From the NCBI GenBank assembly GCA_041659325.1, contig JBAZYN010000001.1, positions 197,428 to 236,818 on the forward strand: 39,391 bases of DNA, in the 5' to 3' direction. This document shows, piece after piece, positions 9,378-29,929 of this stretch (its first letter is position 1; each line of letters starts with the position of its first letter). This stretch comes from Candidatus Shapirobacteria bacterium (lineage in GTDB: Bacteria > Patescibacteriota > Microgenomatia > UBA12405). Under the pieces are notes generated by a model. That model searched no databases. It saw only the letters and a program-made list of their open reading frames with translations, and was not told the DNA's origin. The position numbers and the translations under genes are program-made.

Positions 9378-9752
9378 GTTACCCCACATGGTGTCCTCCA
9401 CCTTCGGTTACGGAACACCTAAGATTCTGTCTTGCTTTCACATCTTTCTTTAAAGCTTCAGATATCAACCTTTTATAAGCGAATGCTTTTCCAGAACCGC
9501 TTTTCAAATAAAGTTCAAAATCTTTAGCCTCTTGCTCACTTTCAAAAGATCCATACCAAACTAATTTCCATGGAATATGCGGTTTTGTTGAAAATACATT
9601 TCCTCTGTTGTGTAATTCAAATCTGTTCCTCAGGTCTGAGGTGTATCCATAGTAGAAAATATGTGATTTTGAACTTAACAATATGTAGGAATAAAACATT
9701 CCTCAGTATAACCATTCTGAAGCTTTAGCGAAAGATGGGTTACCCCACATGG
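9378..9752 (-). mobile_element. Putative tRNA-Gln-associated GIY-YIG mini-element
   Basis: 14-nt direct repeat GTTACCCCACATGG at 9378-9391 and 9739-9752 (tRNA 3' end); 22-nt inverted repeats at 9441-9462 and 9716-9737 (20/22 identical). Confidence 0.6.
9379..9699 (-). CDS. GIY-YIG nuclease family protein
   Basis: YSYIL...YYGYT..L..R...HN, PWKLV and E..LKSG motifs; C-terminal tail is read through repeat DNA. Confidence 0.9.
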   Translation of the reverse strand: MFYSYILLSSKSHIFYYGYTSDLRNRFELHNRGNVFSTKPHIPWKLVWYGSFESEQEAKDFELYLKSGSGKAFAYKRLISEALKKDVKARQNLRCSVTEGGGHHVG

Positions 9753-9810
9753 ATTCGAACCACAATTACTACGTTCAGAGCGTAGTGTCCTACCATTAGA
9801 CGATGGGGTA
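9740..9810 (-). tRNA. tRNA-Gln(CTG)
   Basis: Acceptor TACCCCA/TGGGGTA, anticodon arm CTACG-CTCTGAA-CGTAG, T-loop GGTTCGAATCC; TGaTAGAAT promoter 15 nt upstream. Confidence 0.97.
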
Positions 9811-9821
9811 TTGTATCTGCG

Positions 9822-10460
9822 CTATATTCTATCAAATTTGTACTTTTTTGACTCGTTTTCAATGGTTGTTTCCTGTCCGTGCCCGGAAAGAACCAAAGTC
9901 TCAGGAGACAGCTCCATCAATTTCCGTATACTTTTAAAAATTTCCTCAGTTGAGCCATATTTAAAGTCGGTCCTACCGCGCAGGGCAAAAAACAAAGTAT
10001 CTCCAGAAAACAACAAGTTTTCTTTTGGACAATAAAAGCATACTCCTCCCGGGGTATGGCCGGGGGTTTTAATAATTTTTATTGTATTAGCCCCCAAATG
10101 AATTTCGTCTATTTGATCTAAGTCTGTATCAATATTTTCAATATTCGGTGTTGCCACATTTTTGTTAAGAAAATAGCCTGCGGTTTGATTTTGTCTCTTC
10201 AGTAAAAACATGTCTCTTTTACTGCAATATATGGGAACATTAAACATCAGCTTCATATCAAGCGCGGCCATCACATGATCAAAATGTCCGTGAGTTAAAA
10301 AAACTCCCGTCGGTTTCAAACTATTTTTTTGTATCTCTTCTACAATATAATCAGCTTCGTCAGCCGGATCGATAATAAAACACTTTCGCTCCTCACTCTC
10401 CCAAAGAAGATAACAGTTTGTTTGCATTTCCCCCAATACTAAAGTCCTATATTCCAACAT
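9822..10460 (-). CDS. MBL-fold metallo-hydrolase (glyoxalase II-like)
   Basis: THGHFDH, TPGHTPG, FSGDTLF and GHG motifs; ATG 10460 lies 7 nt after TGgTAAAAT. Confidence 0.92.
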   Translation of the reverse strand: MLEYRTLVLGEMQTNCYLLWESEERKCFIIDPADEADYIVEEIQKNSLKPTGVFLTHGHFDHVMAALDMKLMFNVPIYCSKRDMFLLKRQNQTAGYFLNKNVATPNIENIDTDLDQIDEIHLGANTIKIIKTPGHTPGGVCFYCPKENLLFSGDTLFFALRGRTDFKYGSTEEIFKSIRKLMELSPETLVLSGHGQETTIENESKKYKFDRI

Positions 10461-10499
10461 GTTCTTAATTTTACCAACCATTTTAGATATAATGACAGT

Positions 10500-11135
10500 A
10501 TGAAACTAACATATTTGAAGTCAATTTGTCTTCTCCTCTGTGCTACCTTTATATTTTCCGCCTGCGGTAAAAAAGATAGTACAAAAGATGTTATCTTCAG
10601 TGACGCGGAAAACGAAATAGAAACAATTAGCCCATACGTCGACAAGTTGGCAAGTGTACAAATTGATTTATCCAAAACCATACCCCTCAATCAGGAGTTT
10701 GAGGTAATTTATAAAACAGCAAACCCGGACGGTATAGGCAAAGCCACTTTTAAGGCTAAATCAATGAAAGAAATTCCGAAAGCCGGCCTTAATACACCAG
10801 AAGAAGGTAAAAAATTGGTTCTTGTCGAAATTTCCATTCGCGGTAACAAGGACAATAAAGGTGAACCCTCTGGTTTCAACCAGATTGGTGATAAACCATC
10901 TCCTCAATTTGTGATGATAAATAAGGATAAAAATATAAGTGAAGTGGAAACTACTTATTTCAGCGACAGCTATACTGTCGAAAAAAAATTATTTGAACTT
11001 TCAAAAATCACCCTAGATCATGACCAATGGGTCCATACTGCTCTGGTTTTCCAACTGGACAAGGATAGCACCCCGGATCTTGCCTTTAGATTTACTAATC
11101 CCGAAGGAAAAACAGCATTTTATGACCTCCAGTAA
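10500..11135 (+). CDS. Lipoprotein, possibly DUF4352-like
   Basis: Signal peptide with lipobox FSAC-GKK; beta-rich domain containing LVLVEISIRGN. Confidence 0.65.
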   Translation: MKLTYLKSICLLLCATFIFSACGKKDSTKDVIFSDAENEIETISPYVDKLASVQIDLSKTIPLNQEFEVIYKTANPDGIGKATFKAKSMKEIPKAGLNTPEEGKKLVLVEISIRGNKDNKGEPSGFNQIGDKPSPQFVMINKDKNISEVETTYFSDSYTVEKKLFELSKITLDHDQWVHTALVFQLDKDSTPDLAFRFTNPEGKTAFYDLQ

Positions 11136-11718
11136 ATCAGCCAACAAGAGACTCTTTATCGGGGGATTGCCATACAAATATAGCGAAGGTCAGCTCTTAC
11201 GATTATTTATCGGCCAAGGTAAGGTAATAGATGCCAGAATTATTCATAATCAGTGGGGAAAAAGCCGCGGTATAGGCTATGTAGAGTTTGAAGACCTGAA
11301 CGATGCCATCGAAGCCAAACAAAAATTTCACAATTACGAAATAGAACCGGGCCGAACCATTATAGTCGACTTTGCCCAAACAGATCCCATGTTGACACCC
11401 GAAGGTCAGCAAAGACATGCCGAGGCGCAAGCTAAGAAACGTCCATATATTCGTCGGTCGGACAACTATTCCCGCACCCCGGAGGGAGATTCCAAATTTA
11501 TTTCTACCCATAGCCTTAATACTGATCGGCCGCAAGAAGACCAACAGTTCAAACCAAAATTTGGACCCCGTCTTAAATTCGGCAAAAAGGGTGATTCTTC
11601 AAAAACCAAAGCTAGTTTTGAGCATCAACGCCAGAGTGTCTTTAATTCGCGTAATTTTGGGGCCAAAACAGGCGCAAAATTTGCTGCCAGAACTGCCGCC
11701 CGTAAAAAAACCCGATGA
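11122..11718 (+). CDS. RRM RNA-binding protein with basic disordered tail
   Basis: RNP2 LFIGGL and RNP1 RGIGYVEF; start placed at ATG 11122, overlapping the upstream gene by 14 nt. Confidence 0.88.
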   Translation: MTSSKSANKRLFIGGLPYKYSEGQLLRLFIGQGKVIDARIIHNQWGKSRGIGYVEFEDLNDAIEAKQKFHNYEIEPGRTIIVDFAQTDPMLTPEGQQRHAEAQAKKRPYIRRSDNYSRTPEGDSKFISTHSLNTDRPQEDQQFKPKFGPRLKFGKKGDSSKTKASFEHQRQSVFNSRNFGAKTGAKFAARTAARKKTR

Positions 11719-12782
11719 TCAGTTTTCAAAAACCGATAATCGGGCTTTCTCCCATGGATGGTATTACCGACGAGCCGTTTCGTCTGCTTCAATCCCGTAT
11801 CGCCAAACCTGACCTTATGTTTACGGAATTCGTGAGCGCGGAGGGGCTAAGTCGCGGAGGAGTTAAGCTCTACGACGTTCTTTTGTACTCGAAAGAAGAA
11901 AGGCCGATCGTAGGCCAACTTTTCGGAAAAGACCCCGAAAGTTTTTACAAGTCCGCCATAATTCTTGCTCATCTTGGTTTTGATGGGGTAGACATCAACA
12001 TGGGTTGCCCGGCCAAGACAGTTATCCAACATGGCTCGGGCGGAGCACTGATCGAAAACCCAACACTTGCATCGGAAATTATCAAGTCAACCCAAAAGGG
12101 CATCACCGACTGGTATCAAGGCAGGATTTCTATTGACAACCTTGACCTCAATCAAAAAACCCATCAGGTTATCAAAAGAAATTTAAAATATTCCATCATT
12201 AAAAGTCTCCCCTTCCTCAAGGGGAGATGTCCCGAAGGGACAGGGAGGTTTGTCCCCTCTGTTTCTGTTAAAACCAGGTTGGGTATCAACGATAAAGTAT
12301 ACAAAACCTGGATTCCTTTTTTACTGCAACACCGCCTGGATTTTATAACAATTCACGGCCGAACGCTAAAGCAAGGTTATTCCGGATCTACCGATTGGCC
12401 GGCAATTCAGGAATGTGCCCAAATAGCAAAGTCATCAAACACTCCGATTTTCGGTAACGGCGATATTCAATCCCGCCAACAGGGTATGGATTATTGTAAA
12501 AAATATGGCGTCTCTGGTGTCTTAATCGGCCGGGCATCAACGGGGAATCCGTGGGTTTTCAAAGATAGAGAAGCTTCTCTAAAAGAAAAATATTCCACCA
12601 TGTTACTTCACACCCAGCTTTTCCAGTCTATCTTTCCATCCCGCCGCCTTGATTCTATGCGAAAACATTTTCTTTTGTATTCCACGGGACACCTCCATGC
12701 CAAAAAGCTCCGTGCTCACTTAGTCAGAGTAAATTCACTTAACGACCTTTTGTCACTTGAAGACGAGTTTTTAAATTGCTAG
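11715..12782 (+). CDS. tRNA-dihydrouridine synthase (DusB-like)
   Basis: LSPMDGITD, QLFG, DINMGCP, SVKTRLG, IHGRT, GNGD and IGRA motifs. Confidence 0.92.
   Translation: MISFQKPIIGLSPMDGITDEPFRLLQSRIAKPDLMFTEFVSAEGLSRGGVKLYDVLLYSKEERPIVGQLFGKDPESFYKSAIILAHLGFDGVDINMGCPAKTVIQHGSGGALIENPTLASEIIKSTQKGITDWYQGRISIDNLDLNQKTHQVIKRNLKYSIIKSLPFLKGRCPEGTGRFVPSVSVKTRLGINDKVYKTWIPFLLQHRLDFITIHGRTLKQGYSGSTDWPAIQECAQIAKSSNTPIFGNGDIQSRQQGMDYCKKYGVSGVLIGRASTGNPWVFKDREASLKEKYSTMLLHTQLFQSIFPSRRLDSMRKHFLLYSTGHLHAKKLRAHLVRVNSLNDLLSLEDEFLNC
12206..12251. repeat. Double-hairpin palindromic element in-frame within dus
   Basis: TCTCCCCTT-cctc-AAGGGGAGA (12206-12227) directly followed by TGTCCC-gaa-GGGACA (12228-12242). 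Confidence 0.7.
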
Positions 12783-12792
12783 ATTAAAAGGT

Positions 12793-13203
12793 ATGCCAAA
12801 CGACAATCAAACATCGCAAACCCTCGTCAGCGTAGAATCACTTATTAATAGCTACAACTCCCGTCTCGACACTCTCCAGACCCAACAAAAGCAATTTAAA
12901 GAAATGCTCAACTCGATTCTCGACAACGACACTGATTTTCAAACTATTGCCAAAGAAGCCTCAAAACAGGCAAAACTTAAGATGATTGCAAAGCAAAAAG
13001 TATTAAAACTCTCGGAAGCCGCCCAAACTGTAGACAAGATGAAAGAGTGCCAGACCCAGCTGAGAGAAATAAAAACTGCCCTCTCGGATTATCTTTCCCA
13101 ATATGTAACTCTTTCCGGAACCAACCAAATAGAAGGCATGGATGGGGTTTTACGACAAATTGTTTATACCGCCAAATTAGTTAAAATATCCGGTAAAAAA
13201 TAA
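12793..13203 (+). CDS. Hypothetical coiled-coil protein
   Basis: Q/K/E/L-rich helical ORF in operon orientation. Confidence 0.7.
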   Translation: MPNDNQTSQTLVSVESLINSYNSRLDTLQTQQKQFKEMLNSILDNDTDFQTIAKEASKQAKLKMIAKQKVLKLSEAAQTVDKMKECQTQLREIKTALSDYLSQYVTLSGTNQIEGMDGVLRQIVYTAKLVKISGKK

Positions 13204-13246
13204 ATTTAAAAATTATTAAATTATAAATTATTAAATTTTTTAAAAT

Positions 13247-13564
13247 ATGTCACATATCGTTGGTACAGAACAAAACTTTAAAACCGAAGTTCTCGATTAC
13301 AAAGGAAAAGTTCTCGTCGATTTTTGGGCACCCTGGTGTGGACCCTGTCAAATGCTAACACCGATAATTGAGGAGATTGCCCTCGAACAAACCGGAAAGC
13401 TAAAGGTGGTAAAAGTAAACGTCGACGAACAGCAATCTCTTTCCTCACAATACGGCATCAGCGGTATCCCGGCTGTTTTCATCTTTATTAACGGAGAGCT
13501 AAAGGAACAAATCATTGGTTTCCGCCAAAAACAAGATTATTTATCAGCCATAGAAAAGTATTAA
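13247..13564 (+). CDS. trxA: Thioredoxin
   Basis: VDFWAPWCGPC active site and GIP motif. Confidence 0.96.
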   Translation: MSHIVGTEQNFKTEVLDYKGKVLVDFWAPWCGPCQMLTPIIEEIALEQTGKLKVVKVNVDEQQSLSSQYGISGIPAVFIFINGELKEQIIGFRQKQDYLSAIEKY

Positions 13565-14559
13565 TGGATTTATCGAAAGTTGAAACTTTCTTAAAAAATA
13601 ACAATCTCCCGCTTTATCGTCTAAAACAAATCCGCAAAAATTATTTTTCCGGTCGTTTTTCCTCTTTTGATGATATGACGGACTTGCCTCTGAGCCTAAG
13701 AAAGTCTCTGTCCGCAAATTTTTCTCTACTTTCAGTTATCACCGACAAAACTGAGACCACAGGCAGCACCCAAAAAGCGCTTCTAAATCTCGTCGACAAT
13801 CAAAAAATAGAATCTGTTCTAATGGATTACGACGGATGGCTGACCGCTTGTGTCAGCAGTCAGGTAGGTTGTCCTCTAAATTGTTCTTTTTGCGCCACAG
13901 GGCGTTTAGGTTATAAAAGAAACTTATCAGCCGAAGAGCTAGTAGACCAAATATTATATTGGAACACTCGCTTATTTCCCAAATATATTGGCCGGATTGT
14001 TTTTATGGGAATGGGAGAGCCGTTTTTAAACTGGGACAACCTAATCTCTGCCCTAAAAATTATTAATTCAAAAGATGGTTTGGGCATTGGAGCCCGTAAG
14101 ATTAGTATTTCTACCGCCGGCATCATCAACCGCATCTACGACTTTACAAATCTTAATACCGAAATCAACTTGGCCATTTCCCTTCATAGTGTTAATCAAA
14201 AAATTCGCGAGCATATAATGCCGATTGCCAAACAATATCCGCTCCGTGATCTAAAAAAGGCTTGTCTAAATTATGTGCAAGTCACCAAGCGCCAACTCTT
14301 TTTTGAATACGCCCTAATGAAGAACATAAACGATAGCCCGGAGGATGCGGCCAAGCTAATTATTTTTATAAATACAAATAGATTATATTATTTAAACTTA
14401 ATTCATTTAAATCCCATAGAAAAAGGAATTGTCCCCTCCGACCAAAAGACCAGCAACTCGTTTATCTCCATCTTAACAAAATCCGGAATAAATTTTTCTC
14501 TACGGCGGACTTTTGGCCAGTCTATCCATGCTGCTTGTGGTCAGCTAGCTGGTAAATAA
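13564..14559 (+). CDS. rlmN: 23S rRNA/tRNA m2A methyltransferase RlmN
   Basis: SSQVGC, CPLNCSFC radical-SAM motif, MGMGEP, ISTAG, AISLH and AACGQL. Confidence 0.93.
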   Translation: MDLSKVETFLKNNNLPLYRLKQIRKNYFSGRFSSFDDMTDLPLSLRKSLSANFSLLSVITDKTETTGSTQKALLNLVDNQKIESVLMDYDGWLTACVSSQVGCPLNCSFCATGRLGYKRNLSAEELVDQILYWNTRLFPKYIGRIVFMGMGEPFLNWDNLISALKIINSKDGLGIGARKISISTAGIINRIYDFTNLNTEINLAISLHSVNQKIREHIMPIAKQYPLRDLKKACLNYVQVTKRQLFFEYALMKNINDSPEDAAKLIIFINTNRLYYLNLIHLNPIEKGIVPSDQKTSNSFISILTKSGINFSLRRTFGQSIHAACGQLAGK

Positions 14560-14582
14560 CGAAATTACAGTATAATACAGAT

Positions 14583-15533
14583 ATGTTAATCGATGAAGCC
14601 AGAATATTAATCAAAGCCGGTGATGGTGGAAACGGTTTTGTCCACTTCTATCGAGACCGTTGGCGGCCCAAAGGCGGCCCGGATGGTGGAAATGGCGGGA
14701 GTGGGGGTTCGGTCTATTTTGTCGCGGTTTCAGATATCAGTAAACTTCGCCAATTTCGCCATCAAAAAAAGTATTTGGCTGAAAACGGCAGTAATGGAGG
14801 TGTTAAGCAAATGACCGGAAAAAATGGCCAGGATCTTACCCTTGAAGTTCCAGTGGGGACTATTGTCACATACGACAATGGTACACAGGTAGAATTTACA
14901 AAAGTTGGAGAGAAGTTTCTGATGACCAAAGGTGGTAAAGGCGGCAAAGGAAATTTTCACTTCCGTTCCGCAACTAACCAAACTCCTCAGGACTTCACTC
15001 CCGGCCAAAAGCGAGAATATAAAAATCTTTTTTTACAACTCAAATTAATTGCCCAGGTCGGTCTTATCGGACTACCAAACGCCGGGAAAACTAGCCTCTT
15101 AAATGAACTAACTTCCGCCAAAGCCAAAGTTGCCAACTACGCCTTTACCACCCTTGAACCAAATCTCGGGAGCACCAAGTCCGGCTTTATTATCGCCGAT
15201 ATCCCCGGGTTAATTGAAGGTGCCTCATCCGGAAAAGGGTTGGGGATCAAGTTTTTAAAACATATTGAAAGAACTCAAATTTTGGTTCATTGCTTATCGT
15301 GTGAATCAACAGATCCCCAGAAAGACTACCACACCGTCCGTCACGAACTAGAAAGCTATAGCTCAGTTTTAGCTGCCAAACCGGAATTGTTAGTCCTGAC
15401 AAAATCAGACATCCTGGTCTCCAAACAGATAAAACTGCTCCAAAAACAAACCGGGGCTCAATTTGCCACCTCAATCATAGACACAGATAGCGTTAAAAAC
15501 CTAAACGATTATCTGGCCAAAGAACTATCTTAA
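14583..15533 (+). CDS. obgE: GTPase ObgE/CgtA
   Basis: Gly-rich Obg domain (GPDGGNGG) and G-motifs GLPNAGKTS, FTT, DIPG and TKSD. Confidence 0.96.
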   Translation: MLIDEARILIKAGDGGNGFVHFYRDRWRPKGGPDGGNGGSGGSVYFVAVSDISKLRQFRHQKKYLAENGSNGGVKQMTGKNGQDLTLEVPVGTIVTYDNGTQVEFTKVGEKFLMTKGGKGGKGNFHFRSATNQTPQDFTPGQKREYKNLFLQLKLIAQVGLIGLPNAGKTSLLNELTSAKAKVANYAFTTLEPNLGSTKSGFIIADIPGLIEGASSGKGLGIKFLKHIERTQILVHCLSCESTDPQKDYHTVRHELESYSSVLAAKPELLVLTKSDILVSKQIKLLQKQTGAQFATSIIDTDSVKNLNDYLAKELS

Positions 15534-15961
15534 GCCGTTAAAGCCTTTTTAATTTTCAACCAATCCTTTTTAAGCTGATTAGCTAATTTTGTCGCTCCAT
15601 TTTTTGTTGCATCAAAATCATTTTTAAAATCGGAGACGACATCCTCAACAATCATCCCATATTTCTCTTTATTGATTTCCTCCCCGGCACTTTTAACTGC
15701 CGCCACCTTTTCCATTACTTTCGAAGTGATTTCCTTGTATTTATCCTTCGCCATTTTCGTTGCTTCACCAAAAACTTCGGTCACTCTACTCTCAGTATCC
15801 TCTACTTCTGTCTTTATCGCCTTACCCAACTTACTGGCCAATCTCAAAATATCTTCTCTGGTTTCCTCTCCGGATTTAGGAGCAAACAACAAACCGCCTA
15901 TCGCTCCGGCTGCAGCACCCAATAACCCAGCCAAAAAAAATTTACCTGTAGTTTTTGACAT
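15530..15961 (-). CDS. YtxH-domain protein
   Basis: GLLGAAAGAIGGLLFAPKSGEETR signature; has an AGGAG Shine-Dalgarno. Confidence 0.85.
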   Translation of the reverse strand: MSKTTGKFFLAGLLGAAAGAIGGLLFAPKSGEETREDILRLASKLGKAIKTEVEDTESRVTEVFGEATKMAKDKYKEITSKVMEKVAAVKSAGEEINKEKYGMIVEDVVSDFKNDFDATKNGATKLANQLKKDWLKIKKALTA

Positions 15962-16029
15962 AATTCTCCTAATAATTCTATAACAACTCAGTCTAATTTA
16001 TTTTAAGCCTGCTGTCAACATCAAGTAGG

Positions 16030-16935
16030 TTATTCTATCACCGCTCTTTCCGGCCAATGAGGATCGGTTTTAACATTAAGTTCCAAAAACACTTTCCTTC
16101 CGGACATTAGTTCCAATTCTTTTCTGGCATTAAAACCTATTTCTTTAATCTTTTTTCCATCTCTACCAATTATCATTTTTTTATATCTATCCGCCGTTGT
16201 AAAAATTGTCGCCTGAATCAAAATTAGTTTCTTTTTATCAACAATCTTGTCTACTACAATACTAATCGAATATGGGACTTCTTCTCTCAAAAACAAATAT
16301 GCCTTTTCCCTGACAAGCTCCCCAATATATTCCTTAGAGCTAATCGGTATTACTGGTTTTTTAACTGATTTCAATATCTTGACTTCTTCTTCTATTTTTT
16401 CTTCGCTATCGTCTCCGAGTAGATCAAAAATCAAATTTACCAACCCCTTAACATTCTTTGATTTAATCGCGCTAATCTTTATATTTCTGTCAAACTCATC
16501 CTCCATATAGTTGTACTCTGCAAAATGATCTTTACTACCTGTTGCCGCATCAGATTTGTTATAGACCAGAATTTTTTTGGCTCCTGATTTTCTGACCAAT
16601 CCCAAGGCTTTATTTTCTTCATCATTTTTTGGCCTCGAAATATCAACCAACATTACAATTACATCGGCCTTGCTGCTTTCCTTTGGTGCTTCGGTGTTTA
16701 CCCTCTTCCCCACCAAGTCTTCGACTTTTCCGATAACTCCCGGGGTATCGGAAAACAATATTTCACCTCGAGCATCGGAATATACTACTCTCATATTTTT
16801 CCGGGTAGTTTGGGGCAGGGGAGATGTGATTGCGACTTTCTGATTCATAATCGCATTCAGTAGTGTTGATTTACCGGTATTCGGTCTGCCGATTATTACC
16901 GCTCTTCCTGATTTTTTGACATCTTGAATTTTCAT
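16030..16935 (-). CDS. era: GTPase Era
   Basis: GRPNTGKST, QTTR, DTPG, NKSD, EEVPY and KH-domain IIGRDG; ATG 16935 lies 7 nt after TGtTAAAAT. Confidence 0.95.
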   Translation of the reverse strand: MKIQDVKKSGRAVIIGRPNTGKSTLLNAIMNQKVAITSPLPQTTRKNMRVVYSDARGEILFSDTPGVIGKVEDLVGKRVNTEAPKESSKADVIVMLVDISRPKNDEENKALGLVRKSGAKKILVYNKSDAATGSKDHFAEYNYMEDEFDRNIKISAIKSKNVKGLVNLIFDLLGDDSEEKIEEEVKILKSVKKPVIPISSKEYIGELVREKAYLFLREEVPYSISIVVDKIVDKKKLILIQATIFTTADRYKKMIIGRDGKKIKEIGFNARKELELMSGRKVFLELNVKTDPHWPERAVIE

Positions 16936-16999
16936 CTTCGATATTTTAACATTAATTTCAACGTTGACACTTAGCAATGGCAATGATAGACTGCTAATT

Positions 17000-19381: not shown

Positions 19382-19388
19382 TATGACA

Positions 19389-19531
19389 TCATTGCGCCTG
19401 CCCGCCTCTGGCGGGAGGAGCTTTTCAAGCGACGAAGCAATCATTACAGGATTTGACTATACAAATCTCTCCACTCCGAATTATTGCTTTTGTTAAAGAT
19501 TGCCACAGTCAATCCTTCCTTCGCAATGACG
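19389..19531. repeat. REP-like CGTC-tagged palindromic element with nested 19-nt insert
   Basis: TCATTGCG 19389-19396 pairs with CGCAATGA 19522-19529; GCAATC 19437-19442 pairs with GATTGC 19498-19503; insert CCTGCCCGCCTCTGGCGGG at 19397-19415. Confidence 0.7.
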
Positions 19532-19537
19532 AAATCT

Positions 19538-21268: not shown

Positions 21269-21277
21269 AAGATAATA

Positions 21278-21613: not shown

Positions 21614-21655
21614 AATCGATTTTATCAAATAAATCACTTTATGATATCCTAGAGG

Positions 21656-23080
21656 ATGAAGATAAACCCCAATATGTTTCGAGGATATGATTTACGTGGT
21701 ATTGCTAATGTCGATTTAAATCCGGAAATAGTTCAAAACATCGGCCGTGCCTATGGAACTTATTTATCTAACAAAGATATCAAGGATGCAGTTGTCGGTC
21801 GTGATTGTCGTCAGACCAGTTTGGAATACTCAGAGGCACTGATTAAAGGAATCAGACAGTCGGGGATTAATGTGGTCGATATTGGCCTAACCATGATAGG
21901 CACCTTTTATTGGTCTCAACATCACTTAAACATCCGAGGGGGTGTTTTTGTTACCGCCTCACATAATCCGGCCGAATACAACGGCTTTAAAATTGCATCT
22001 GACCTTTCCGAAACGCTTGTCTCCGACGGAATGAAAGAACTCCGTATAAAAGTAGAGAATGATGATTATGTTCAAAATAAACCCCAAGGTACTTACAAAG
22101 AATATGATATTAACGAACCCTATTTTCGGGAAATTATTAAACTTTTCCCTCAGAATAAAAAATTAAAAATCCTAATTGATCCCAGTCATACCACTGCCGG
22201 TGTAATGGTTCCGTCTCTGCTTCGTCGACTAGGCCACGAAGTAATTGAAATGCACTGCAATATCGACCCCACGTTTCCACTTGGAACACCCGATCCGACA
22301 GAGTCATTCGTTGCAAAAAGGTTGTCACAAGAAGTTGTTTCCGCCGGCGCCGACATTGGCTTTACCTACGACTCTGATGGTGACAGAATCGGAATTGTCG
22401 ATGAAAAAGGTGGGATTATTTGGAACGATGTTTTGTTGGCTATTTTTGCGGCCGATGTTTTGGCACACCACCCAGGCGAGAAGATCATGTTCAACACCCT
22501 TTGTTCCAAAATAGTTCCCGAAACCATTGTTGCCAACGGAGGTGTCCCATTCATGTGGCGAACAGGCCATTCTTTTTTAAAGAAAAAAAATCAGGAAATA
22601 AAAGCTGCTTTTATTGGTGAACTTTCCGGCCATTTTTTCTTTTCAGCAGATTTCTATAATCATGATGATGGTATTTATTCCACCGTAAGACTAATTGATT
22701 ATATCGCTCGAACAGGTAAAACATTATCCGAGGCAGTTTTAAAGTTGCCTCAATATATTTCCAGTCCAGAGATAAAAATCGGCAGTCCTGATGACAAAAA
22801 AGTTGCTTTAATGTCAAAAATCAGTCAAATATTGAAAAAAGATTATCCCTCCGCTGAAATTGTAGATGATGAGAGAGCCGGAGATGGAGTCCGACTCGAT
22901 ATGCCGGATTCTATGTTTGTGGTCCGTTATTCCCAAAACGGACCTTATCTAACCATAAAATTTGAAGCCAGAACGCAGACTAAATACGAAGAACTAAAAA
23001 AATACATTGCAAATCTCATGCGCACTTTTCCACACGACGTAGACTGGTCATTTGGCGCTAATTTGGAAAGCTTAGAGTAA
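21656..23080 (+). CDS. Phosphomannomutase/phosphoglucomutase
   Basis: FRGYDLRG, TASHNP phosphoserine, DSDGDR metal loop and GELSGH sugar loop. Confidence 0.95.
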   Translation: MKINPNMFRGYDLRGIANVDLNPEIVQNIGRAYGTYLSNKDIKDAVVGRDCRQTSLEYSEALIKGIRQSGINVVDIGLTMIGTFYWSQHHLNIRGGVFVTASHNPAEYNGFKIASDLSETLVSDGMKELRIKVENDDYVQNKPQGTYKEYDINEPYFREIIKLFPQNKKLKILIDPSHTTAGVMVPSLLRRLGHEVIEMHCNIDPTFPLGTPDPTESFVAKRLSQEVVSAGADIGFTYDSDGDRIGIVDEKGGIIWNDVLLAIFAADVLAHHPGEKIMFNTLCSKIVPETIVANGGVPFMWRTGHSFLKKKNQEIKAAFIGELSGHFFFSADFYNHDDGIYSTVRLIDYIARTGKTLSEAVLKLPQYISSPEIKIGSPDDKKVALMSKISQILKKDYPSAEIVDDERAGDGVRLDMPDSMFVVRYSQNGPYLTIKFEARTQTKYEELKKYIANLMRTFPHDVDWSFGANLESLE

Positions 23081-23109
23081 AGTCCATTTTTATTGTCTAT
23101 TATATTTTT

Positions 23110-24315
23110 ATGACAAAATATCAACCTTCAGTCGAAATTCTTGATCGTTACGCCGACGTTCTCGTCAACTTTGCCCTTAATCACGGCAAAGGAATGAAAA
23201 AGGGAGAAGTGGTTTTTCTCCAAGTCCCGGAATCTGCAAAACCTCTCCTAGTTTCATTGCAAAAAATAGTCCTTCGGAGTGGGGGACACGCCATCATACA
23301 ATATCTCCCCGATGAAATCCAAAAAGATTTTTTTGCCCTGGCCTCAGACGAACAAATAAATTTTTTTCCTGCCAAATTTTTAAAAGGAAAAATCGACCAG
23401 GCCGATCATTTTCTCACCATTTTAGCCGAAACCAATCTTCACGAACTTGAAGGCATAGACCCATACAAAATCATGGACCGCAATCGCTCCATGAAGCCCT
23501 ATCTCGATTGGCGAAATGTCAAGGAAGCCAAAGGAAAATTTTCCTGGACACTTGGTCTGTATGCCACCCCTGCCATGGCCAAAGAGGCCGGTATTTCTTT
23601 AAAATCATGCTGGAAACAAATCATTCGCGCCTGTTATCTTGACAACCACAGCCCCGTTAACAAGTGGAAAAAAGTCCAAATCGAAATTAATCGTGTAAAG
23701 GACAAATTAAATAAACTTAATATTGAAAGTTTACATATTAAATCCAGAAATTGTGACTTTACAGTTGGGATCGATAGAAACAGAAAATGGCTAGGCGGTA
23801 ACGGTGCCAATATTCCCAGTTTTGAGCTGTTTATTTCTCCCGACTGGCGAAAAACCAACGGCCATATATTTTTCAATCAACCCCTTTACCGTTACGGTAA
23901 TCTGATAAAAAACATAAATTTAGATTTTAAAGCAGGTATAGTAATCAATGCCACCGCCAATTACGGCCAAAAGGTACTCACCGATTTATTAAAAGTAGAA
24001 AACGCAAACAAAATCGGTGAATTTTCTTTAACTGACAAACGCATATCCAAAATAAACAGCTTTATGGCAGAAACTCTCTATGATGAAAATTTCGGAGGCA
24101 GATTTGGCAATACTCATATTGCCCTGGGTAATTCTTTTCGAGATTCTCACCCCGGTAATACTTCAAAAATTACCGCAAAAGAATGGGATGATCTGGGATT
24201 CAATGACTCAGCCATCCATGTTGACCTAATATCTAGCGAGAATCGAATGGTCACCGCAACCTTAGAAAACGGCACGCAGATAATAATCTATAAGGATGGT
24301 GTCTTCTGTATTTAA
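23110..24315 (+). CDS. M29 family aminopeptidase (AmpS/AmpT-like)
   Basis: YADVLV, NIPSFELF, KIGEF, YDEN, HIALG and SAIHVDLI motifs. Confidence 0.92.
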   Translation: MTKYQPSVEILDRYADVLVNFALNHGKGMKKGEVVFLQVPESAKPLLVSLQKIVLRSGGHAIIQYLPDEIQKDFFALASDEQINFFPAKFLKGKIDQADHFLTILAETNLHELEGIDPYKIMDRNRSMKPYLDWRNVKEAKGKFSWTLGLYATPAMAKEAGISLKSCWKQIIRACYLDNHSPVNKWKKVQIEINRVKDKLNKLNIESLHIKSRNCDFTVGIDRNRKWLGGNGANIPSFELFISPDWRKTNGHIFFNQPLYRYGNLIKNINLDFKAGIVINATANYGQKVLTDLLKVENANKIGEFSLTDKRISKINSFMAETLYDENFGGRFGNTHIALGNSFRDSHPGNTSKITAKEWDDLGFNDSAIHVDLISSENRMVTATLENGTQIIIYKDGVFCI

Positions 24316-24342
24316 ACACTTCACAACCTACTAACCTATCTT

Positions 24343-27033
24343 CTATCTTTTGGTTGTAAAATTTTTAACTGAGGAACTATATTCAACCCCGGATGCGTTC
24401 TTAGAGTGTACTTTATAATAGTACTTTCTACCCCGGCTTAAACCAGAGAGCTTTACGGAATGAATTTTTGTCAAGTTATTATCTAAAGTCGTCGAATTAT
24501 TAAGAAAAATTGACATTACTCCATAGCTCACCCTACTTGTTCCTGGGTTTGAGCTTGTCCAGTTTATTACCACCGAACTACTGGTAATATTTGTGGCGGA
24601 AATTGCCGATATAACTATTGGCTGAGCTGTTGGTATCGGAATTGGTGTTGGTGTATTTGTAGGAGTGGGTATACTAGTCGGTACCAAAACAGGTATTGGG
24701 TTTTTATAAATTCTAATTTGCCCTCTGTTTGCATCAAATACATACAAATCATCATTACTATCAAAAACTGCTCCAACCGGCCAATTATAGAAATCAGACA
24801 GATAACCATCAGGTTTTGCAAACTCTGGATCGGACGGGTTATTCTGGTTAACAAGTGCCGGATCATTATAATACTCAACAAACCTGTTGCCTCCATAAGG
24901 ATTTTGCCCTACCACCATTTGATTTAGGCTATTGAATGTTGGTTCAAAAGTCATATGTGGATAGCTGTTCGATGAGCTTTTTCTCGGAAATGACTTGGTG
25001 GCGAAGGTGGCATACATAACTTCTGCGTTGTCCGATGGAAATAAGGCCGAAGAAAACATCAGCAGTCTCCAGTTTCCCGCCGATTCCAAATAATGGTCCG
25101 ATACATACAAATTCCCTTTTTTATCTATTGCCAAAGCCCCGGGGTAACACAGCATATTCAAATCCGCCGTCAGTGCTGTCCCTGAATTGGGCTGAGGCAC
25201 CACACCTCGATTACACTCATTCCCGTTAATATCATTCTGCCCCAATACAACGTCGACCACCGGATCAGTCAGTGGGGTTCTTATTCTAAACACTCTGTGA
25301 TTAATAGTGTCTGATACCCACAAAAACTCAGAATGTTCCGTAATCGCTAATCCGTGAGCATCATCAAAATTCACCTGCCCTCCGCCTAAAACCTGAATCG
25401 GCGAACTAATTATTTTCACTGCCGACGCACCGATCGATAAAGGTGCCTGGTATAAAACTACTTGGTTGGACCTCATTATCCAAACTCTGTTATCAGAATC
25501 AACTTTTATCTGTTCATACCCGGGATTTGGTAGCTCGCTAAAATTAGAAACGCCTACATAGCCATCCGGTGTTTGGCCGTTTACAAGACTATCCTTATCA
25601 TTCCAAAACAATACCCTGTTATTACCGGCAATCAGCTGGTTTCCGGCAATAGCGACTCCCACAAAACCCGGATGCTCAAATCTCCTGGCTGAAGTAAAAT
25701 TATATCCGTATGGTGGAGAAAACAACCTCTTCGTTTGAAGATAACTCCCGTCACTCTGTTTTGTGAACCTATAGACATCTTGTCCATATACATATGAAGA
25801 AGGCAGCAAACTACCTTCACTGTCGATCCCCACTGAGCCACCCCCCAATGCTTCAACACTTAATTGTGTAATTACGTTAGTACCGTTGCTATCCCATAAT
25901 CTGATCCGACCCGACCATACATTATTATCATATACAAATATCCCTCTCCCATCCGGGTCTATTTCTACCGCCACTGGATTTGTGTGATCTGCTCCAAAAA
26001 TGGCTCCGCTCATTCCGACACTAAACGGTTCACTAAATTGGAGAACTCTATTATTATAAGTATCGGCAACTAATATTCTTGCATTGTTACCGTCATATCT
26101 CACCGCTCCCGGACCATGCAATCTATCAGGTGAACTCCCGTATGACCAATCGCCCCCTGTCGTAAAGTTTGGTTGACCCAACACTACATCAGCGGTCTTA
26201 GAAATAATACCAGTCTGCGTATCTCTTGGAAATCTCAAAACCCTGTTATTTCCACCATCGGCTACCCATAAATTTCCGAATTTATCGATCGTAACTCCGC
26301 CCCCGGCAGCGCCGATAGAGTGAAAGCAGATCGAAAACGCAGTTGGAGGCGGTGAAGCCGAAAAACCATTCCCAATCCCTCCACTGATATTACATTGATT
26401 ACCGCTAAAATCCGCCTGGCCCCAAACCTCATCCGCCACCGTATCCGTTGTAAACGGGCTAATAAACTTCAATACTCGGTTGTTTTGCGAATCGGCCACA
26501 AAAAGATTTCCATAATCATCAACGAACATACTGACAAAACTTTTGTCTTCCAGCGTTGTCCGGGTAGACTCTGGCATCCCACACAAAGTCGATGCCGATG
26601 CCGGTCTCCTGTTTGGGTATGTGTCAAAACTTGCATCCTGATTACACGCCCCATAATCACTCGCCGATGGCTGTCCTATTACCAAATCCGCGCTGCACGG
26701 TGAATCTCCACTATAACAGTTGGCGAGATTTATCCCAAGTATTCTGCTATTTCCCGAATCCCAAACGTAGAGTCTACCCGGGCTTACCGACCTATCAATT
26801 ATTGTTCCACCCGGTGATGATACTTTAAACGGTACTACCTCTCGGGGGGCAATCTCTCCAAAATCTCTTTTACCAATAACTGTATCAGCCCAAAAATCTC
26901 CGGAAATACCCCGACTTACAACTGCCCCTTGAGCCAATACAAATTCTTTTTTTTGATACCACCAGACGCATGTCAAACTTACAATGAAAATTGATATTAC
27001 TGACACATAAACCACTTTCGAAAGAACCTTCAT
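24343..27033 (-). CDS. Secreted NHL/beta-propeller repeat protein with PT linker and C-terminal FN3-like domain
   Basis: N-terminal signal/TM; repeated VAD..NNRVL and AD.V.GQ motifs; PTSIPTPTNTPTP linker; W.S..P..S.V.YG...H.V.L..L.....YYY motif. Confidence 0.85.
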   Translation of the reverse strand: MKVLSKVVYVSVISIFIVSLTCVWWYQKKEFVLAQGAVVSRGISGDFWADTVIGKRDFGEIAPREVVPFKVSSPGGTIIDRSVSPGRLYVWDSGNSRILGINLANCYSGDSPCSADLVIGQPSASDYGACNQDASFDTYPNRRPASASTLCGMPESTRTTLEDKSFVSMFVDDYGNLFVADSQNNRVLKFISPFTTDTVADEVWGQADFSGNQCNISGGIGNGFSASPPPTAFSICFHSIGAAGGGVTIDKFGNLWVADGGNNRVLRFPRDTQTGIISKTADVVLGQPNFTTGGDWSYGSSPDRLHGPGAVRYDGNNARILVADTYNNRVLQFSEPFSVGMSGAIFGADHTNPVAVEIDPDGRGIFVYDNNVWSGRIRLWDSNGTNVITQLSVEALGGGSVGIDSEGSLLPSSYVYGQDVYRFTKQSDGSYLQTKRLFSPPYGYNFTSARRFEHPGFVGVAIAGNQLIAGNNRVLFWNDKDSLVNGQTPDGYVGVSNFSELPNPGYEQIKVDSDNRVWIMRSNQVVLYQAPLSIGASAVKIISSPIQVLGGGQVNFDDAHGLAITEHSEFLWVSDTINHRVFRIRTPLTDPVVDVVLGQNDINGNECNRGVVPQPNSGTALTADLNMLCYPGALAIDKKGNLYVSDHYLESAGNWRLLMFSSALFPSDNAEVMYATFATKSFPRKSSSNSYPHMTFEPTFNSLNQMVVGQNPYGGNRFVEYYNDPALVNQNNPSDPEFAKPDGYLSDFYNWPVGAVFDSNDDLYVFDANRGQIRIYKNPIPVLVPTSIPTPTNTPTPIPIPTAQPIVISAISATNITSSSVVINWTSSNPGTSRVSYGVMSIFLNNSTTLDNNLTKIHSVKLSGLSRGRKYYYKVHSKNASGVEYSSSVKNFTTKR

Positions 27034-27116
27034 AATATATTTTTATCAAACCAATAAAAGCACTTAGCTCAGTAAACAGCAGCAATATATTTTTGTCAAT
27101 GGGTACTTATCGTCCC

Positions 27117-27434
27117 CTACAAGTCCCTAAATAATATCTCCTTAAAATCGGATACTCTTCCGTTACATATCTTTACCCCTTCTTCTTTCAGAAGTTCCAT
27201 CTTCTTTTTCTGATACTTACCGTCTTTAAATCCAAAATAGCCTCCGATCTTTCCATTACTTTTTACCACCCTATGGCAGGGGACTTCGGGAGCAAATGGA
27301 TTATTCCTTAAAGCCTGGCCAATAGCCCGATAACACTTGCACCCCATAATATCTGCAATTACTTTATAAGTGGTTACGTTGCCAACAGGAACTTTTTTAA
27401 CTATTTTGTATACTTTATCTCTAAATTTACTCAT
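27117..27434 (-). CDS. MGMT/Ogt-family alkyltransferase domain protein
   Basis: VTTYK, RAIGQAL..NP and VPCHRVV with catalytic Cys; lacks N-terminal domain. Confidence 0.9.
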   Translation of the reverse strand: MSKFRDKVYKIVKKVPVGNVTTYKVIADIMGCKCYRAIGQALRNNPFAPEVPCHRVVKSNGKIGGYFGFKDGKYQKKKMELLKEEGVKICNGRVSDFKEILFRDL

Positions 27435-27507
27435 ACGCTAGACAGCCGTGTTGCCGTTCATTAATATTATATCTCTATAAATGTTTAGCCCTGTTATACT
27501 CATAAAG

Positions 27508-28191
27508 ATGACCTCATTTCATATCAAGTTGATTGCAATTATCGCCATGGTTATCGACCATGTAAGTCTTTTCTTTTACCCTGACAATCTTGCTCTAAAA
27601 ATTGTCGGCCGGTTATCTTTCCCGCTTTTTGCTTTTATGGTGGCGATTGGCGCCCGTCACACCCAAAATATCAGCAAATATTTTTTGCGAATGTTAATTT
27701 TTGCATTAATCTCACAAACTCCATATCATTTGACCCATCGGCTAATTAATCCTGAATTTTCTAAACTAAATGTTCTTTTTACATTTTCACTAGCCCTCTT
27801 GGCAATTATTCTGAGCACCAAAATCACCAAAGTCCTCGTGAAACTTATACCAATAGTACTCTCTGCGGCAGCGGCCCAGTTTCTAAAAACTGATTATGGG
27901 GCACTGGGGTTGCTTTTGGTCATTTCCTTTTATTATTTTTTTGATAATTTCAAAATTTCTTCTTTCTCACAAGTTATATTTGCCTTCCTTGCCACCCTTA
28001 TATCTGTCTCCGGTTTCAAACAGTTTTCCATTTCGCAAATTGATCTTGGCCCTGCAATAAGCCTACTCACTATCCCGATTATCTACTCCTACAATTACAA
28101 AGAAGGTCCAAAAGCAAAATACCTATTTTATATCTTTTACCCACTTCAATACACAATAATCTATCTCACCATGACTATATTTTCCCGATAG
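27508..28191 (+). CDS. TraX-family membrane protein
   Basis: KLIAII.MVIDH, GRLSFPLFAF, NVLFT, DYG and K.LFY.FYP motifs; ATG 27508 lies 7 nt after TGtTATACT. Confidence 0.85.
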   Translation: MTSFHIKLIAIIAMVIDHVSLFFYPDNLALKIVGRLSFPLFAFMVAIGARHTQNISKYFLRMLIFALISQTPYHLTHRLINPEFSKLNVLFTFSLALLAIILSTKITKVLVKLIPIVLSAAAAQFLKTDYGALGLLLVISFYYFFDNFKISSFSQVIFAFLATLISVSGFKQFSISQIDLGPAISLLTIPIIYSYNYKEGPKAKYLFYIFYPLQYTIIYLTMTIFSR

Positions 28192-28404
28192 CAACTTGGA
28201 AACACCTACAATAAAGAGCATTTTGATATCATTCCATCTGTTCAACAAAAACAAACTAAAATAAAAGCACTTTATAATATTTATTGATATATCTTTATAG
28301 TCAATAAACCCTATTAATAAGCAAAATAGTAATAATATTATCACTTCTGGCTTTTTCCCTTTAAATTAATTAAACTGTGTAAATTATTGATTGTAATTTC
28401 AAAT

Positions 28405-29511
28405 ATGGAACATAGAGTATCAAGAAGAGATCTTCTAAGATCGGGAGCTGCTGCGCTAGCTGGTCTAGCTGCAAAAGGTTGTATGCCAGAATCTGCCCCT
28501 TCGCAAACAGCACAACCTCCTGCCAATAGCAATGAGGCTCCTCAACCATACGTTGAACAGCCCGCTCAACAACCTACAGTTGCAGTGGTTGAAGAAAGAC
28601 CATCTACAGACAAATCTCTGAATGAACTTTATGATATATATCAAAACGGTGACTTGAGTAAAATTGCTCCGGAGCGTAATTTGGATGAATTAGATCCACG
28701 TATTCAAATGATCAGGCAGTATGCAAACAATATTCAAAATGGAAATGCAAAACAGATAGTATTATCCGATCTTGATAGGTTTACAGAACTTACTTCTAAC
28801 AACCCTGAAACAATAAAATTGTACTATGCTGAAGATGGCCGAGAATACTTGAGAGTTGCTTTAGTTCAGGCACATATCGATGATTCCAAACAGACTGTTC
28901 GTTTCGAATTTTTATTAGCTCCAGATCGTAAATCTCTAACCGCCAGTAACCTAGGTGATTTTGTTCATGAACTTCACCACACGATCGCTCAATACGATTA
29001 TTATGCGCAACACCATACGCTTCAAAGAGACTCACAAATTGAAGAAGCAGAAGAAGTAACTTGTTCTCACCTTGGTAATTTAATACAAGGTCTAGCACTA
29101 AAAGATTATCCTACCACAGAGGATTCATCAGAGCTTTTAAAATCTGATATCGGAATTGACGCACCACAGGCAGCTGCACTTTTGGATAATTCTTATAGTT
29201 CAGAGCCTGGCAATCCAACCTGGAAGGTTATACAAGACCTTTCGTTGAGATTCGTCTTAAACAGGGGGATCGATAAGTTTAAAAATAAATATGGTGACAA
29301 AAAAACAATTTTTAGAATATTGCAAATTATAAAGAACGGAAAAATTAAGGAGGCTCTTATGAGTAAACAATTTGAAGCAGGGAGAGATAAAATTGACACC
29401 TATTATAGCCAAAATCCAATTAGTGAAGATATCCAACAACAAATTGAAACTCTACGCCAAGGGGGATATTTACACAACGACTTCATACCACAATCCTATT
29501 TATCACACTAA
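28405..29511 (+). CDS. Putative lipoprotein with twin-arginine-like signal and HEXXH motif
   Basis: SRRDLLRSGAAALAGLAAKG-C, P/Q-rich linker, then FVHELHH followed by EEAEE. Confidence 0.65.
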   Translation: MEHRVSRRDLLRSGAAALAGLAAKGCMPESAPSQTAQPPANSNEAPQPYVEQPAQQPTVAVVEERPSTDKSLNELYDIYQNGDLSKIAPERNLDELDPRIQMIRQYANNIQNGNAKQIVLSDLDRFTELTSNNPETIKLYYAEDGREYLRVALVQAHIDDSKQTVRFEFLLAPDRKSLTASNLGDFVHELHHTIAQYDYYAQHHTLQRDSQIEEAEEVTCSHLGNLIQGLALKDYPTTEDSSELLKSDIGIDAPQAAALLDNSYSSEPGNPTWKVIQDLSLRFVLNRGIDKFKNKYGDKKTIFRILQIIKNGKIKEALMSKQFEAGRDKIDTYYSQNPISEDIQQQIETLRQGGYLHNDFIPQSYLSH

Positions 29512-29532
29512 AAATCTAATATCTTCATCGAT

Positions 29533-29607
29533 TGGTGACCCTACGGGGAATCGAACCCCGGTTATTTGGATGAGAACCAAATGTCCTAACCGCTAGACGA
29601 TAGGGCC
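29533..29607 (-). tRNA. tRNA-Glu(CTC)
   Basis: Acceptor GGCCCTA/TAGGGTC, anticodon arm TTTGG-TTCTCAT-CCAAA, T-loop GGTTCGATTCC, encoded CCA. Confidence 0.97.
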
Positions 29608-29849
29608 TTACTATGTATTAAATTTTCAATAGCCTTTCTGCTTTTCCACGACTTAATTATTTTTTCTCTCTTTCGAGCCAAAGAAAGGCTTGAAAACTTC
29701 TCAAAGTATATCAAATTCCAAGGCAATTTTAACTTCGTATATCTGGATCTTCCGGCATTATGATAATTTAGTCTTTGATATATCTCAGACGTTGACCCCA
29801 CATAATAAGAATTATCCCTCAATGAAGCTAGAATATAAGTGTAATACAT
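29586..29849 (-). CDS. GIY-YIG nuclease family protein overlapping the tRNA-Glu 5' end
   Basis: YTYIL...YYVGST....RL..HN, PW.LIY and RE..IKS motifs; the last 22 nt of the ORF are tRNA sequence. Confidence 0.9.
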   Translation of the reverse strand: MYYTYILASLRDNSYYVGSTSEIYQRLNYHNAGRSRYTKLKLPWNLIYFEKFSSLSLARKREKIIKSWKSRKAIENLIHSKALSSSG

Positions 29850-29857
29850 AACTTACT

Positions 29858-29929
29858 CTAACCGCTAGTCCCGATCCTTCGGATCGAGGATGCTCGGTCC
29901 CTTATATTCAGACCGGCAACGATAGGGCC
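29858..29929 (-). repeat. Interrupted duplicate of the tRNA-Glu 5' 22 nt
   Basis: GGCCCTATCGT (29929-29919), a 50-nt insert of two hairpins (29918-29869), then CTAGCGGTTAG (29868-29858). Confidence 0.8.

Follow-up and report, generated by a model that had tools for sequence, protein, structure and literature searches.

Two groups of GIY-YIG nucleases bear on the present work. Chenal et al. (2025; PMC11893778) characterized the Ssn proteins, GIY-YIG nucleases of 94 amino acids (aa) whose binding of an oriented hairpin (NTS/SRM) is confined to its single-stranded DNA (ssDNA) form and which cut a few nucleotides upstream of it. The ssn genes are often flanked by this motif, and the authors compared the unit with an insertion sequence and with RAYT/REP, leaving open what Ssn-type mini-nucleases do outside Neisseria and whether they move there. 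The second precedent is SegB of phage T4, a free-standing GIY-YIG homing endonuclease in a tRNA cluster that makes double-strand cuts and whose recognition site includes the T-psi-C motif (PMC2330249; PMC13096335 is a further source on this enzyme). Here, we describe two cassettes in a 39,391-nt stretch of a Candidatus Shapirobacteria genome (assembly GCA_041659325.1, contig JBAZYN010000001.1, positions 197,428 to 236,818; hereafter, the window), in each of which a small GIY-YIG gene is docked to an intact tRNA gene. Among the searchable papers, we found none describing tRNA-docked small GIY-YIG cassettes.

Both cassettes are insertions, present or absent among close relatives, and related cassettes occur at many tRNAs, with a duplicated piece that always matches the local tRNA and with hairpins that covary. 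They are probably mobile DNA. Each is 322-361 nt long, contains a single open reading frame (ORF) and carries no recombinase gene; both cassettes and both host tRNAs are on the minus strand, and the host tRNA stays functional in either design. In type A (locus 1, docked at the 3' end), the order is tRNA-Gln, a left-end motif (LE), the gene with an inverted copy of LE inside it (IRi), a right-end hairpin (RE) and a 14-nt copy of the tRNA end. In type B (locus 2, docked at the 5' end), it is tRNA nt 1-11 (copy A), a 50-nt double hairpin, nt 12-22 (copy B), the gene and the intact tRNA. The tRNA copies flanking the gene measure 13-17 nt in type A and 15-38 nt in type B. A first-pass annotation, made by a model from the letters of the window alone, had described at both loci a small GIY-YIG gene on the same strand as an adjacent intact tRNA with a duplicated tRNA segment. 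The coordinates, the PF01541 matches and the repeats bear this out (Table 1). The two proteins (P0001 and P0002) are 37% identical to each other, and the claim of two independent elements is supported. We lean, with somewhat more confidence than doubt, toward two subfamilies of cassettes resident at tRNA genes, each composed of a nuclease gene plus hairpins, whose movement would couple the nuclease to its hairpins.

The tRNA-Glu site was surveyed by searching metagenomes with the neighboring 379-aa protein, which yielded 80 loci. The site was empty in 54 of them (tRNA 20-40 nt from the neighbor gene and no GIY-YIG gene) and filled in 6; other genes lay in between in 15, and 5 were cut by contig ends. 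The state of the site changes at least 8-9 times on the host-gene tree. The nearest relative of the window (L096, host protein 77% identical) is empty, and filled and empty loci occur as sister pairs (L128/L105, L113/L132, L010/L127, and L161/L112). Pairwise alignments of filled and empty loci show a clean insertion with no recombinase in the difference, and copy A occupies the position held in the empty site by the tRNA 5' end, presumably along with its promoter flank. The empty allele of the window itself was recovered from a sister sample (run X3), in which a 259-nt contig joins position 29609 to position 29932 with 0 mismatches over 78 + 52 nt. A comparison of empty and filled sites in close relatives had been proposed as a check in the first-pass annotation, and its outcome agrees with insertion. 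Gaps of 217-1294 nt beside tRNA-Glu were considered as further cassettes and rejected: 10 of the 11 examined hold ordinary genes (pilin-like, RtcB-like), and the L146 gap (290 nt) held none in this check, which sought ORFs of at least 45 aa.

At the same tRNA-Glu, L145 carries a different GIY-YIG lineage (43% identical), which is an independent arrival. At ~1360-1500 of this locus, there is a 38-nt copy of the tRNA-Glu 5' half ending in a hairpin, and another hairpin divides a second, gene-less partial copy further upstream. In L004, L005, and L007 (2754-4481), a serine recombinase (Resolvase) of 564-575 aa stands directly behind tRNA-Glu, with a DUF87/TraG-like gene after it in L004 and L005; hence, this tRNA serves as an island integration site at its 3' end and as a GIY-YIG cassette site at its 5' end. 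At the tRNA-Gln site, the type A gene is absent from L176 and L177 (the closest informative relatives, with a 78% identical metallo-beta-lactamase [MBL] neighbor) and from L180, and it is present in L018. L176 has at 2660-2746 a gene-less LE-type hairpin within a partial copy of the tRNA-Gln 5' part.

A scan of species-representative genomes gave 80 type A loci, 73 of them with enough upstream sequence. A same-strand tRNA ends within 120 nt upstream of the start codon in 50 of the 73 and within 260 nt in 54, so that a cross-genome form of the census of GIY-YIG genes against tRNA distance, suggested with the first-pass annotation, came out in favor of the association. Most of 20 examined loci (18 without a detected tRNA plus L016 and L093) have tRNA-3'-like remnants before LE. 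The host tRNAs comprise Gln(CTG/TTG), Asn(GTT), Ser(GCT/GGA/CGA), Gly(TCC/CCC), Tyr, Leu, Met, and Cys, with at least 13 anticodons. In 37 of 53 type A loci, a stretch of 13 nt or more from the local tRNA is repeated exactly ~300 nt past the ATG; the repeat runs from the T loop/T stem border to the discriminator or the encoded CCA. Control stretches of equal length from 51 related loci matched over only 4-7 nt, except for a single locus with 11 nt. Among elements that are 60-86% identical, the repeat is that of the local tRNA in every case, and type A genes that are close relatives occupy different tRNAs, with several copies per genome. The type A protein tree is poorly resolved, with partial clustering by tRNA type together with switches (Ser-GCT beside Gln-TTG). 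That both host tRNAs in the window have C34 anticodons and share ATCGTCTA, as pointed out in the first-pass annotation, is coincidental, because the host tRNAs of the relatives have GTT, TTG, GCT, GGA, CGA, TCC, and other anticodons.

In the ~50 type A loci listed, LE, with the family pattern (N)ATCYTTCGCYAARGCTWCRGAAT, always directly follows the tRNA, and RE always abuts the repeat. LE and IRi covary, with 88.7% of cells paired against 34-47% in slid controls, and double-sided changes number 121 against 45 in shuffles (0 of 500 shuffles were as high). One of the covarying positions flips a codon of the ORF between Glu and Val, tracking the change in the noncoding LE; therefore, the constraint is on the nucleic acid and not on the protein. 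Since the fold energies of single hairpins are not significant (z of -0.6 to -2.5), the case for structure rests on covariation and not on energy. With cassettes that are polymorphic as insertions, located at many tRNAs and each provided with its own covarying hairpins, the proposal of minimal elements tied to tRNA genes is supported.

In the window, the 14-nt repeat of locus 1 corresponds to tRNA nt ~61-73 plus one base and comprises the T stem 3' strand, the acceptor 3' strand and the discriminator. LE is a quasi-palindrome with a GCTAAAGC mini-hairpin that fits the family pattern with 0 mismatches, and RE is a divergent member of the family with consensus GGTAKTCCGAAGC-loop-GCGWAGGAYA. DNA homology of the locus to other elements, by blastn, spans LE to IRi only (9736-9442). 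The first-pass annotation had a palindrome inserted within the duplicate at both loci. This stands for locus 2, where the double hairpin splits 11 + 11 nt of tRNA sequence; at locus 1, RE abuts the repeat, with no clear splitting of a longer tRNA copy. A split at "GAATC" was tried as a general feature of locus 1 and rejected, as it involves only 5-6 nt and the relatives lack a T-loop remnant before RE. L179, however, contains at 3003-3130 two tandem 50-nt hairpin-only units of exactly this design, GAATC|hairpin|CATGCGGGGCAAC, in which the hairpin splits a copy of the tRNA-Gln 3' part at GAATC|CATG. In another five loci (L026, L035, L039, L040, and L067), 3-5 tandem copies of a 20-36-nt LE-tail unit (GAATGGCAAGCC...) lie between LE and the start codon, forming a small expanding minisatellite.

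In type B, the hairpin module interrupts the tRNA copy behind "CGT", where the acceptor stem meets the D arm. Alignments show that TGCCG..CGAGCA and TCCTCG..CGGGA are invariant, while the upper stems vary by compensation (ATCC/GGAT, ACCC/GGGT, ACCT/AGGT, GTCC/GGAC, and GTCCCGAT/ATCGGGAC); the double hairpin also recurs in other contexts (run X3). The source sample (run X1) contains a second, lower-depth contig of the filled allele over 29824-29961, with 11 substitutions and small insertions within the double hairpin, so co-occurring strains differ there. The loci of P0004, P0006, and P0009 share a synteny of comM, UPF0102, dprA, a 378-aa membrane protein, the GIY-YIG gene, tRNA-Glu and a variable region, and their ORFs overlap tRNA-Glu by 22 nt wherever the tRNA was detected. 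More type B genes follow the same plan at tRNA-Ser(GGA), tRNA-Gln(CTG), tRNA-Gln(TTG) and a His-like tRNA, with the hairpin usually right after TCG(T), where the D arm starts. In L038, L053, and L070, a single tRNA is preceded by a type B gene and followed by a type A gene.

Both genes of the window end in tRNA-derived sequence. P0001 starts 38 nt past tRNA-Gln and finds its stop in the distal repeat, and P0002 ends 22 nt within tRNA-Glu, whose first 22 nt double as its last 7 codons and TAG stop. The borrowing of stop codons from tRNAs is thus real in both genes but incidental rather than general: the ORFs of most type A relatives stop in or just before RE, and type B ORFs stop in the tRNA in 3 of 5 contexts. 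A conserved RE arm, GCGTAGG or GTGAAGG, could supply the stop of the type A relatives; the RE of the window has GTGGAGG instead, and translation of P0001 therefore runs into the repeat. In type B, the packing is tight and the D loop of the tRNA offers the first in-frame stop, which accounts for its origin. A leaderless pattern, GGT-TA.A.T-N5-ATG, had also been proposed for the two genes. There are indeed -10-like hexamers 5 nt ahead of the ATG in both, and in locus 2 copy B runs into one of them (TAGAGT), the ATG lying 8 nt past copy B; a promoter scan, however, predicted no sigma-70-type promoter before P0001 or P0002.

Table 1. Cassette components, host tRNAs and other features of the window (coordinates refer to the 39,391-nt stretch)
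Feature	Position	Strand	Evidence
tRNA-Gln(CTG), intact, host of type A	9738..9810	-	ARAGORN; Rfam tRNA 59.5 bits
Proximal 14-nt repeat CCATGTGGGGTAAC	9739..9752	-	Repeat search
LE (CATCTTTCGCTAAAGCTTCAGA), 22 nt, directly past the tRNA 3' end	9716..9737	-	
P0001, type A GIY-YIG nuclease gene, 106 aa	9379..9699	-	Pfam PF01541, E 6.6e-14
IRi, inverted LE copy within the ORF, codons ~80-86	9441..9462	-	20/22 complementary
RE (GGTGTTCCGTAACCGAAGGTGGAGGACACC), 30 nt, abutting the distal repeat	9390..9419	-	DNA fold
Distal 14-nt repeat of the tRNA-Gln 3' end, exact copy; carries the TAA stop of P0001	9378..9391	-	
tRNA-Glu(CTC), intact, host of type B	29533..29607	-	ARAGORN; Rfam 63 bits
P0002, type B GIY-YIG nuclease gene, 87 aa	29586..29849	-	Pfam PF01541, E 1.3e-17
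Distal copy B of tRNA-Glu nt 12-22 (CTAGCGGTTAG)	29858..29868	-	Repeat search
Double-hairpin module TGCCG-stem1-CGAGCA-TCCTCG-stem2-CGGGA	29869..29918	-	DNA fold
Distal copy A of tRNA-Glu nt 1-11 (GGCCCTATCGT)	29919..29929	-	Repeat search; filled vs empty alignments
Stretch absent from the empty allele, 322 nt = one repeat period	29610..29931	.	Run X3 contig
Candidate solo hairpin TCCCGAT-TGCGAAGCGTC-ATCGGGA	4489..4513	.	Hairpin scan, fold; putative link to the elements
Noncoding block X, palindrome CGTCCCG-N8-CGGGACG	8804..8892	-	blastn

PF01541 is the sole domain of P0001 and P0002, with scores of 52.4 and 64.3 bits against a curated cutoff of 22.6. Residues Y16, R26, H30, E62, and K66 are invariant in an alignment spanning both subfamilies, in keeping with the catalytic Tyr, Arg, His/Asn and Glu of the superfamily, whose beta-beta-alpha...beta-alpha core fold is present as well. 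P0001 has a core of ~86 aa, and its tail is translated from the hairpin and the tRNA repeat; the AlphaFold model has a pLDDT above 94 over residues 1-70 and is disordered past residue ~93. A fold search with this model gave UPF0213 BH0048 and the Slx1 nuclease domain as the nearest folds (26-33% identity), the best matches by sequence and fold being 1zg2, 1ywl, 6sei, and 7cq3 (Slx1/UPF0213), and I-TevI as a distant match (10% identity, E ~0.6). Seg-type enzymes carry an added DNA-binding domain, and no separate domain of the Seg or I-Tev kind accompanies the ~86-aa core. Given the PF01541 match, the invariant catalytic residues and the fold neighbors, both proteins look like minimal, active, Slx1-like nucleases, unlike classical homing endonucleases with a DNA-binding domain. 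We found 772 homologs of P0001 at E <= 1e-5, many of them 60-86% identical, across distant lineages of the candidate phyla radiation (CPR). The homologs of P0002 at 74-82% identity are P0006, with 106 aa, and ten proteins of 87 aa. The PADLOC, PHROGs, and NCBIfam profile libraries gave no matches, and an exact-sequence lookup of P0002 returned no record.

As to the origin of the duplicated tRNA segment, the distal copies in five tRNA-Glu lineages carry the variant of their own tRNA (C4T with a compensating G69A; D-loop TAGCGG, TAATGG, and TAACGG), and C4 is found in the closest empty relative of the C4T lineage. Because the distal copies are lineage matched and the type A repeats are always local, the sequences favor a duplication made from the target at insertion, or frequently re-homogenized; a fixed sequence borne by the element fits less well. 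By analogy with Ssn nucleases and from the sequences, we infer a mechanism in which the nuclease would bind its own hairpins, most likely as single-stranded or extruded DNA, and nick beside them and at helix junctions of the tRNA gene exposed as single strands. Host replication or repair would then copy or reinsert the cassette at these junctions, and the duplication would be generated from, or re-homogenized against, the target. Alternatively, a circular or hairpin intermediate might enter in a Campbell-type manner, the RE-repeat-LE stem presenting the tRNA segment, with the same final order. We regard as doubtful the stronger version, in which the cassettes would be autonomous mobile DNA whose sole enzyme, a ~90-residue Slx1-like GIY-YIG nuclease, reads its own inverted hairpin ends and the junctions of the tRNA cloverleaf, while the host completes the insertion with a 13-38-nt target-derived duplication. 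The tRNA genes would then be recognized as single-stranded cloverleaves, type A using nt 60/61 together with the 3' end, and type B using nt ~8-12.

Several observations weigh against movement driven by the nuclease and its hairpins. A hydrolytic nuclease of ~90 aa alone cannot carry out strand transfer. At tRNA-Glu, GIY-YIG identity correlates with host-gene identity (r = 0.63); hence, vertical descent with precise loss between the repeats must also contribute, and much of the patchy distribution could be of this origin. The Ssn-related motif HGTCWYN(0-2)YYVSBRHN(0-5)WNVSBRGN(0-2)RNCYNB has 0 matches in the window and in 423,382 bases of loci L002-L095. Finally, a non-GIY cassette with tRNA-3'-end-like repeats (a block with a 94-aa ORF) lies downstream of locus 1, which hints at a mobilizer not specific to GIY-YIG genes. 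Together with block X, this 94-aa ORF is bounded on both sides by TAAC|AGATACG, as would be expected if the cassettes were passive, with the GIY-YIG gene as cargo moved in trans by tRNA-targeting site-specific recombinases and the tRNA-end repeats as attachment sites. The type A repeat, from T stem to 3' end, is a classic integrase target, and the serine recombinase genes behind tRNA-Glu fit as well, so that mobilization in trans is a serious rival. We nevertheless consider it unlikely, since the hairpins coevolve with the nuclease gene, one of them within the ORF, and the repeat equals the local tRNA at at least 13 anticodons, for which element-borne attachment sites would need many switches. 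Moreover, type B occupies the tRNA 5' end and has its copy interrupted by a hairpin, unlike known integrase sites, and there is no recombinase in the window or in the filled/empty differences.

The strong conservation of the protein and of its catalytic residues would also be expected of domesticated genes, that is, an old insertion kept for host use (acting, for instance, on incoming ssDNA, as SsnA in Neisseria), with absences due to repeated precise deletion. SsnA has a host-level role in transformation (PMC11893778), locus 2 is beside dprA and comM in all relatives, and the partly vertical signal at tRNA-Glu points the same way. Residence of this kind sits poorly with closely related type A genes at different tRNAs in several copies per genome, with the independent lineage in L145, and with distal copies re-homogenized to the tRNA of each lineage, which requires new duplication events; overall, we judge it improbable. 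The single repeats are short (11-14 nt), and one may ask whether small ORFs, tRNAs and short repeats are juxtaposed by chance. This is refuted by the census, in which the same architecture recurs in dozens of independent loci, with controls of 4-7 nt and Pfam matches far above threshold.

ARAGORN and Rfam detected three tRNAs in the window. The genes around the cassettes are hisS, an MBL hydrolase, TraX, DprA, and DUF6909; annotation of these neighbors revealed no integrase or transposase near either cassette, as the first-pass annotation had stated. Its suggestion that the elements spread short palindromes across the window fared less well. We counted 14 copies of CCCG...CGGG against 6.7 expected, and a hairpin scan found only two plausible solo hairpins, at 4489-4513 and 8862-8883. 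The former has the outer stem of type B hairpin 2, with a GCGAAGC core inside.

Block X is 82% identical (blastn) to positions 2372-2461 of L016, directly upstream of the closest type A element in that locus. It also has a T-loop-like GTTCGAT, and in L016 the related sequence stands in the place of the tRNA; the type A element there still ends in a decayed tRNA-Gln repeat, CCATGTGAGTTAAC. A motif, CAGATAC(A/G)ATAC / TAAC|AGATACG, occurs in three copies: just upstream of tRNA-Gln and extending into its first 3 nt (9808-9819), just past the type A distal repeat (9367-9378), and just past block X (~8797-8808). The motif looks like a junction of tRNA 3' end and upstream flank, or like repeats of the attachment-site kind at the edges of a second cassette (the 94-aa ORF, P0167, plus X).

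Empty and filled sister sites, target-matched duplications and the many tRNAs involved make a clean comparative case for the gain and loss of such nuclease/hairpin units as discrete insertions. The units use tRNA genes as safe landing sites without a recombinase. They also explain a common oddity of CPR genomes, the small "GIY-YIG nuclease family protein" genes that overlap tRNAs. If the nuclease itself drives movement, this would be a new way to transpose, and an element with no other enzyme would count as a nuclease-only transposon and rank with the smallest known mobile elements that are self-contained. Paired hairpin/nuclease specificities might also find use as ssDNA tools.

Among known systems, the Ssn nucleases share with P0001 and P0002 a single GIY-YIG domain of ~90-100 aa with the same catalytic Tyr/Tyr/Glu spacing (P0002 and P0001 have 87 and 106 aa) and a gene flanked by oriented hairpin motifs, although the hairpins here are of another sequence. 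The type B hairpins come closest to NTS, with a TCCCG...CGGGA stem, a 5' CGT(C) tag and a C just past the palindrome. The differences are that PMC11893778 never mentions tRNA and reports neither target duplication nor empty-versus-filled evidence, and that the window has few motif copies. The analogy with RAYT/REPtron systems drawn in the first-pass annotation is reasonable, but it had already been proposed for small GIY-YIG nucleases by Chenal et al. (2025; PMC11893778). RAYT/REP (REPtron) and IS200/IS605 resemble the cassettes in their small gene, their inverted hairpin repeats that act as ssDNA and their short conserved 5' tag, and gene-less hairpin derivatives are found both in RAYT/REP and here (L176 and L179). 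They differ in being based on HUH tyrosine transposases with covalent intermediates, no target duplication and no preference for tRNAs; the sole ORF of our cassettes encodes a GIY-YIG protein and not an HUH (Y1) transposase. The internal integrase or recombinase of tRNA-integrating islands is likewise absent.

Slx1 and the UPF0213 (YhbQ-type) proteins are the best matches in sequence and fold, and Slx1 cuts branched or hairpin-like DNA by structure, but it has a RING domain and a partner, Slx4. To our knowledge, no Slx1/UPF0213 protein has been tied to tRNA genes or mobile cassettes. T4 SegB resembles the cassettes in being a GIY-YIG gene among tRNA genes that is inherited by presence or absence, and in a recognition site with the conserved T-psi-C stem-loop motif (PMC2330249); the type A junction coincides exactly with the T loop/T stem border, and the SegB case shows that reading the T-psi-C motif common to tRNA genes is within reach of a GIY-YIG enzyme. 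The cassettes, too, are present or absent at a conserved site (the tRNA-Glu survey and the empty tRNA-Gln sites), but homing leaves neither target duplication nor hairpin ends, and both are found here; their fold is also closer to Slx1/UPF0213 than to I-TevI, the sole homing-type structure in the fold search.

In fungal mitochondria, GIY-YIG ORFs known as mORFs are appended to atp6, cox2, and similar genes (see also PMC3630166). Their host is a protein-coding gene joined in frame, the copies differ in sequence, and hairpin ends are lacking, unlike in the cassettes, yet the overall plan is shared: a nuclease ORF at the end of a host gene that stays intact, with the displaced copy of that end beyond the ORF.

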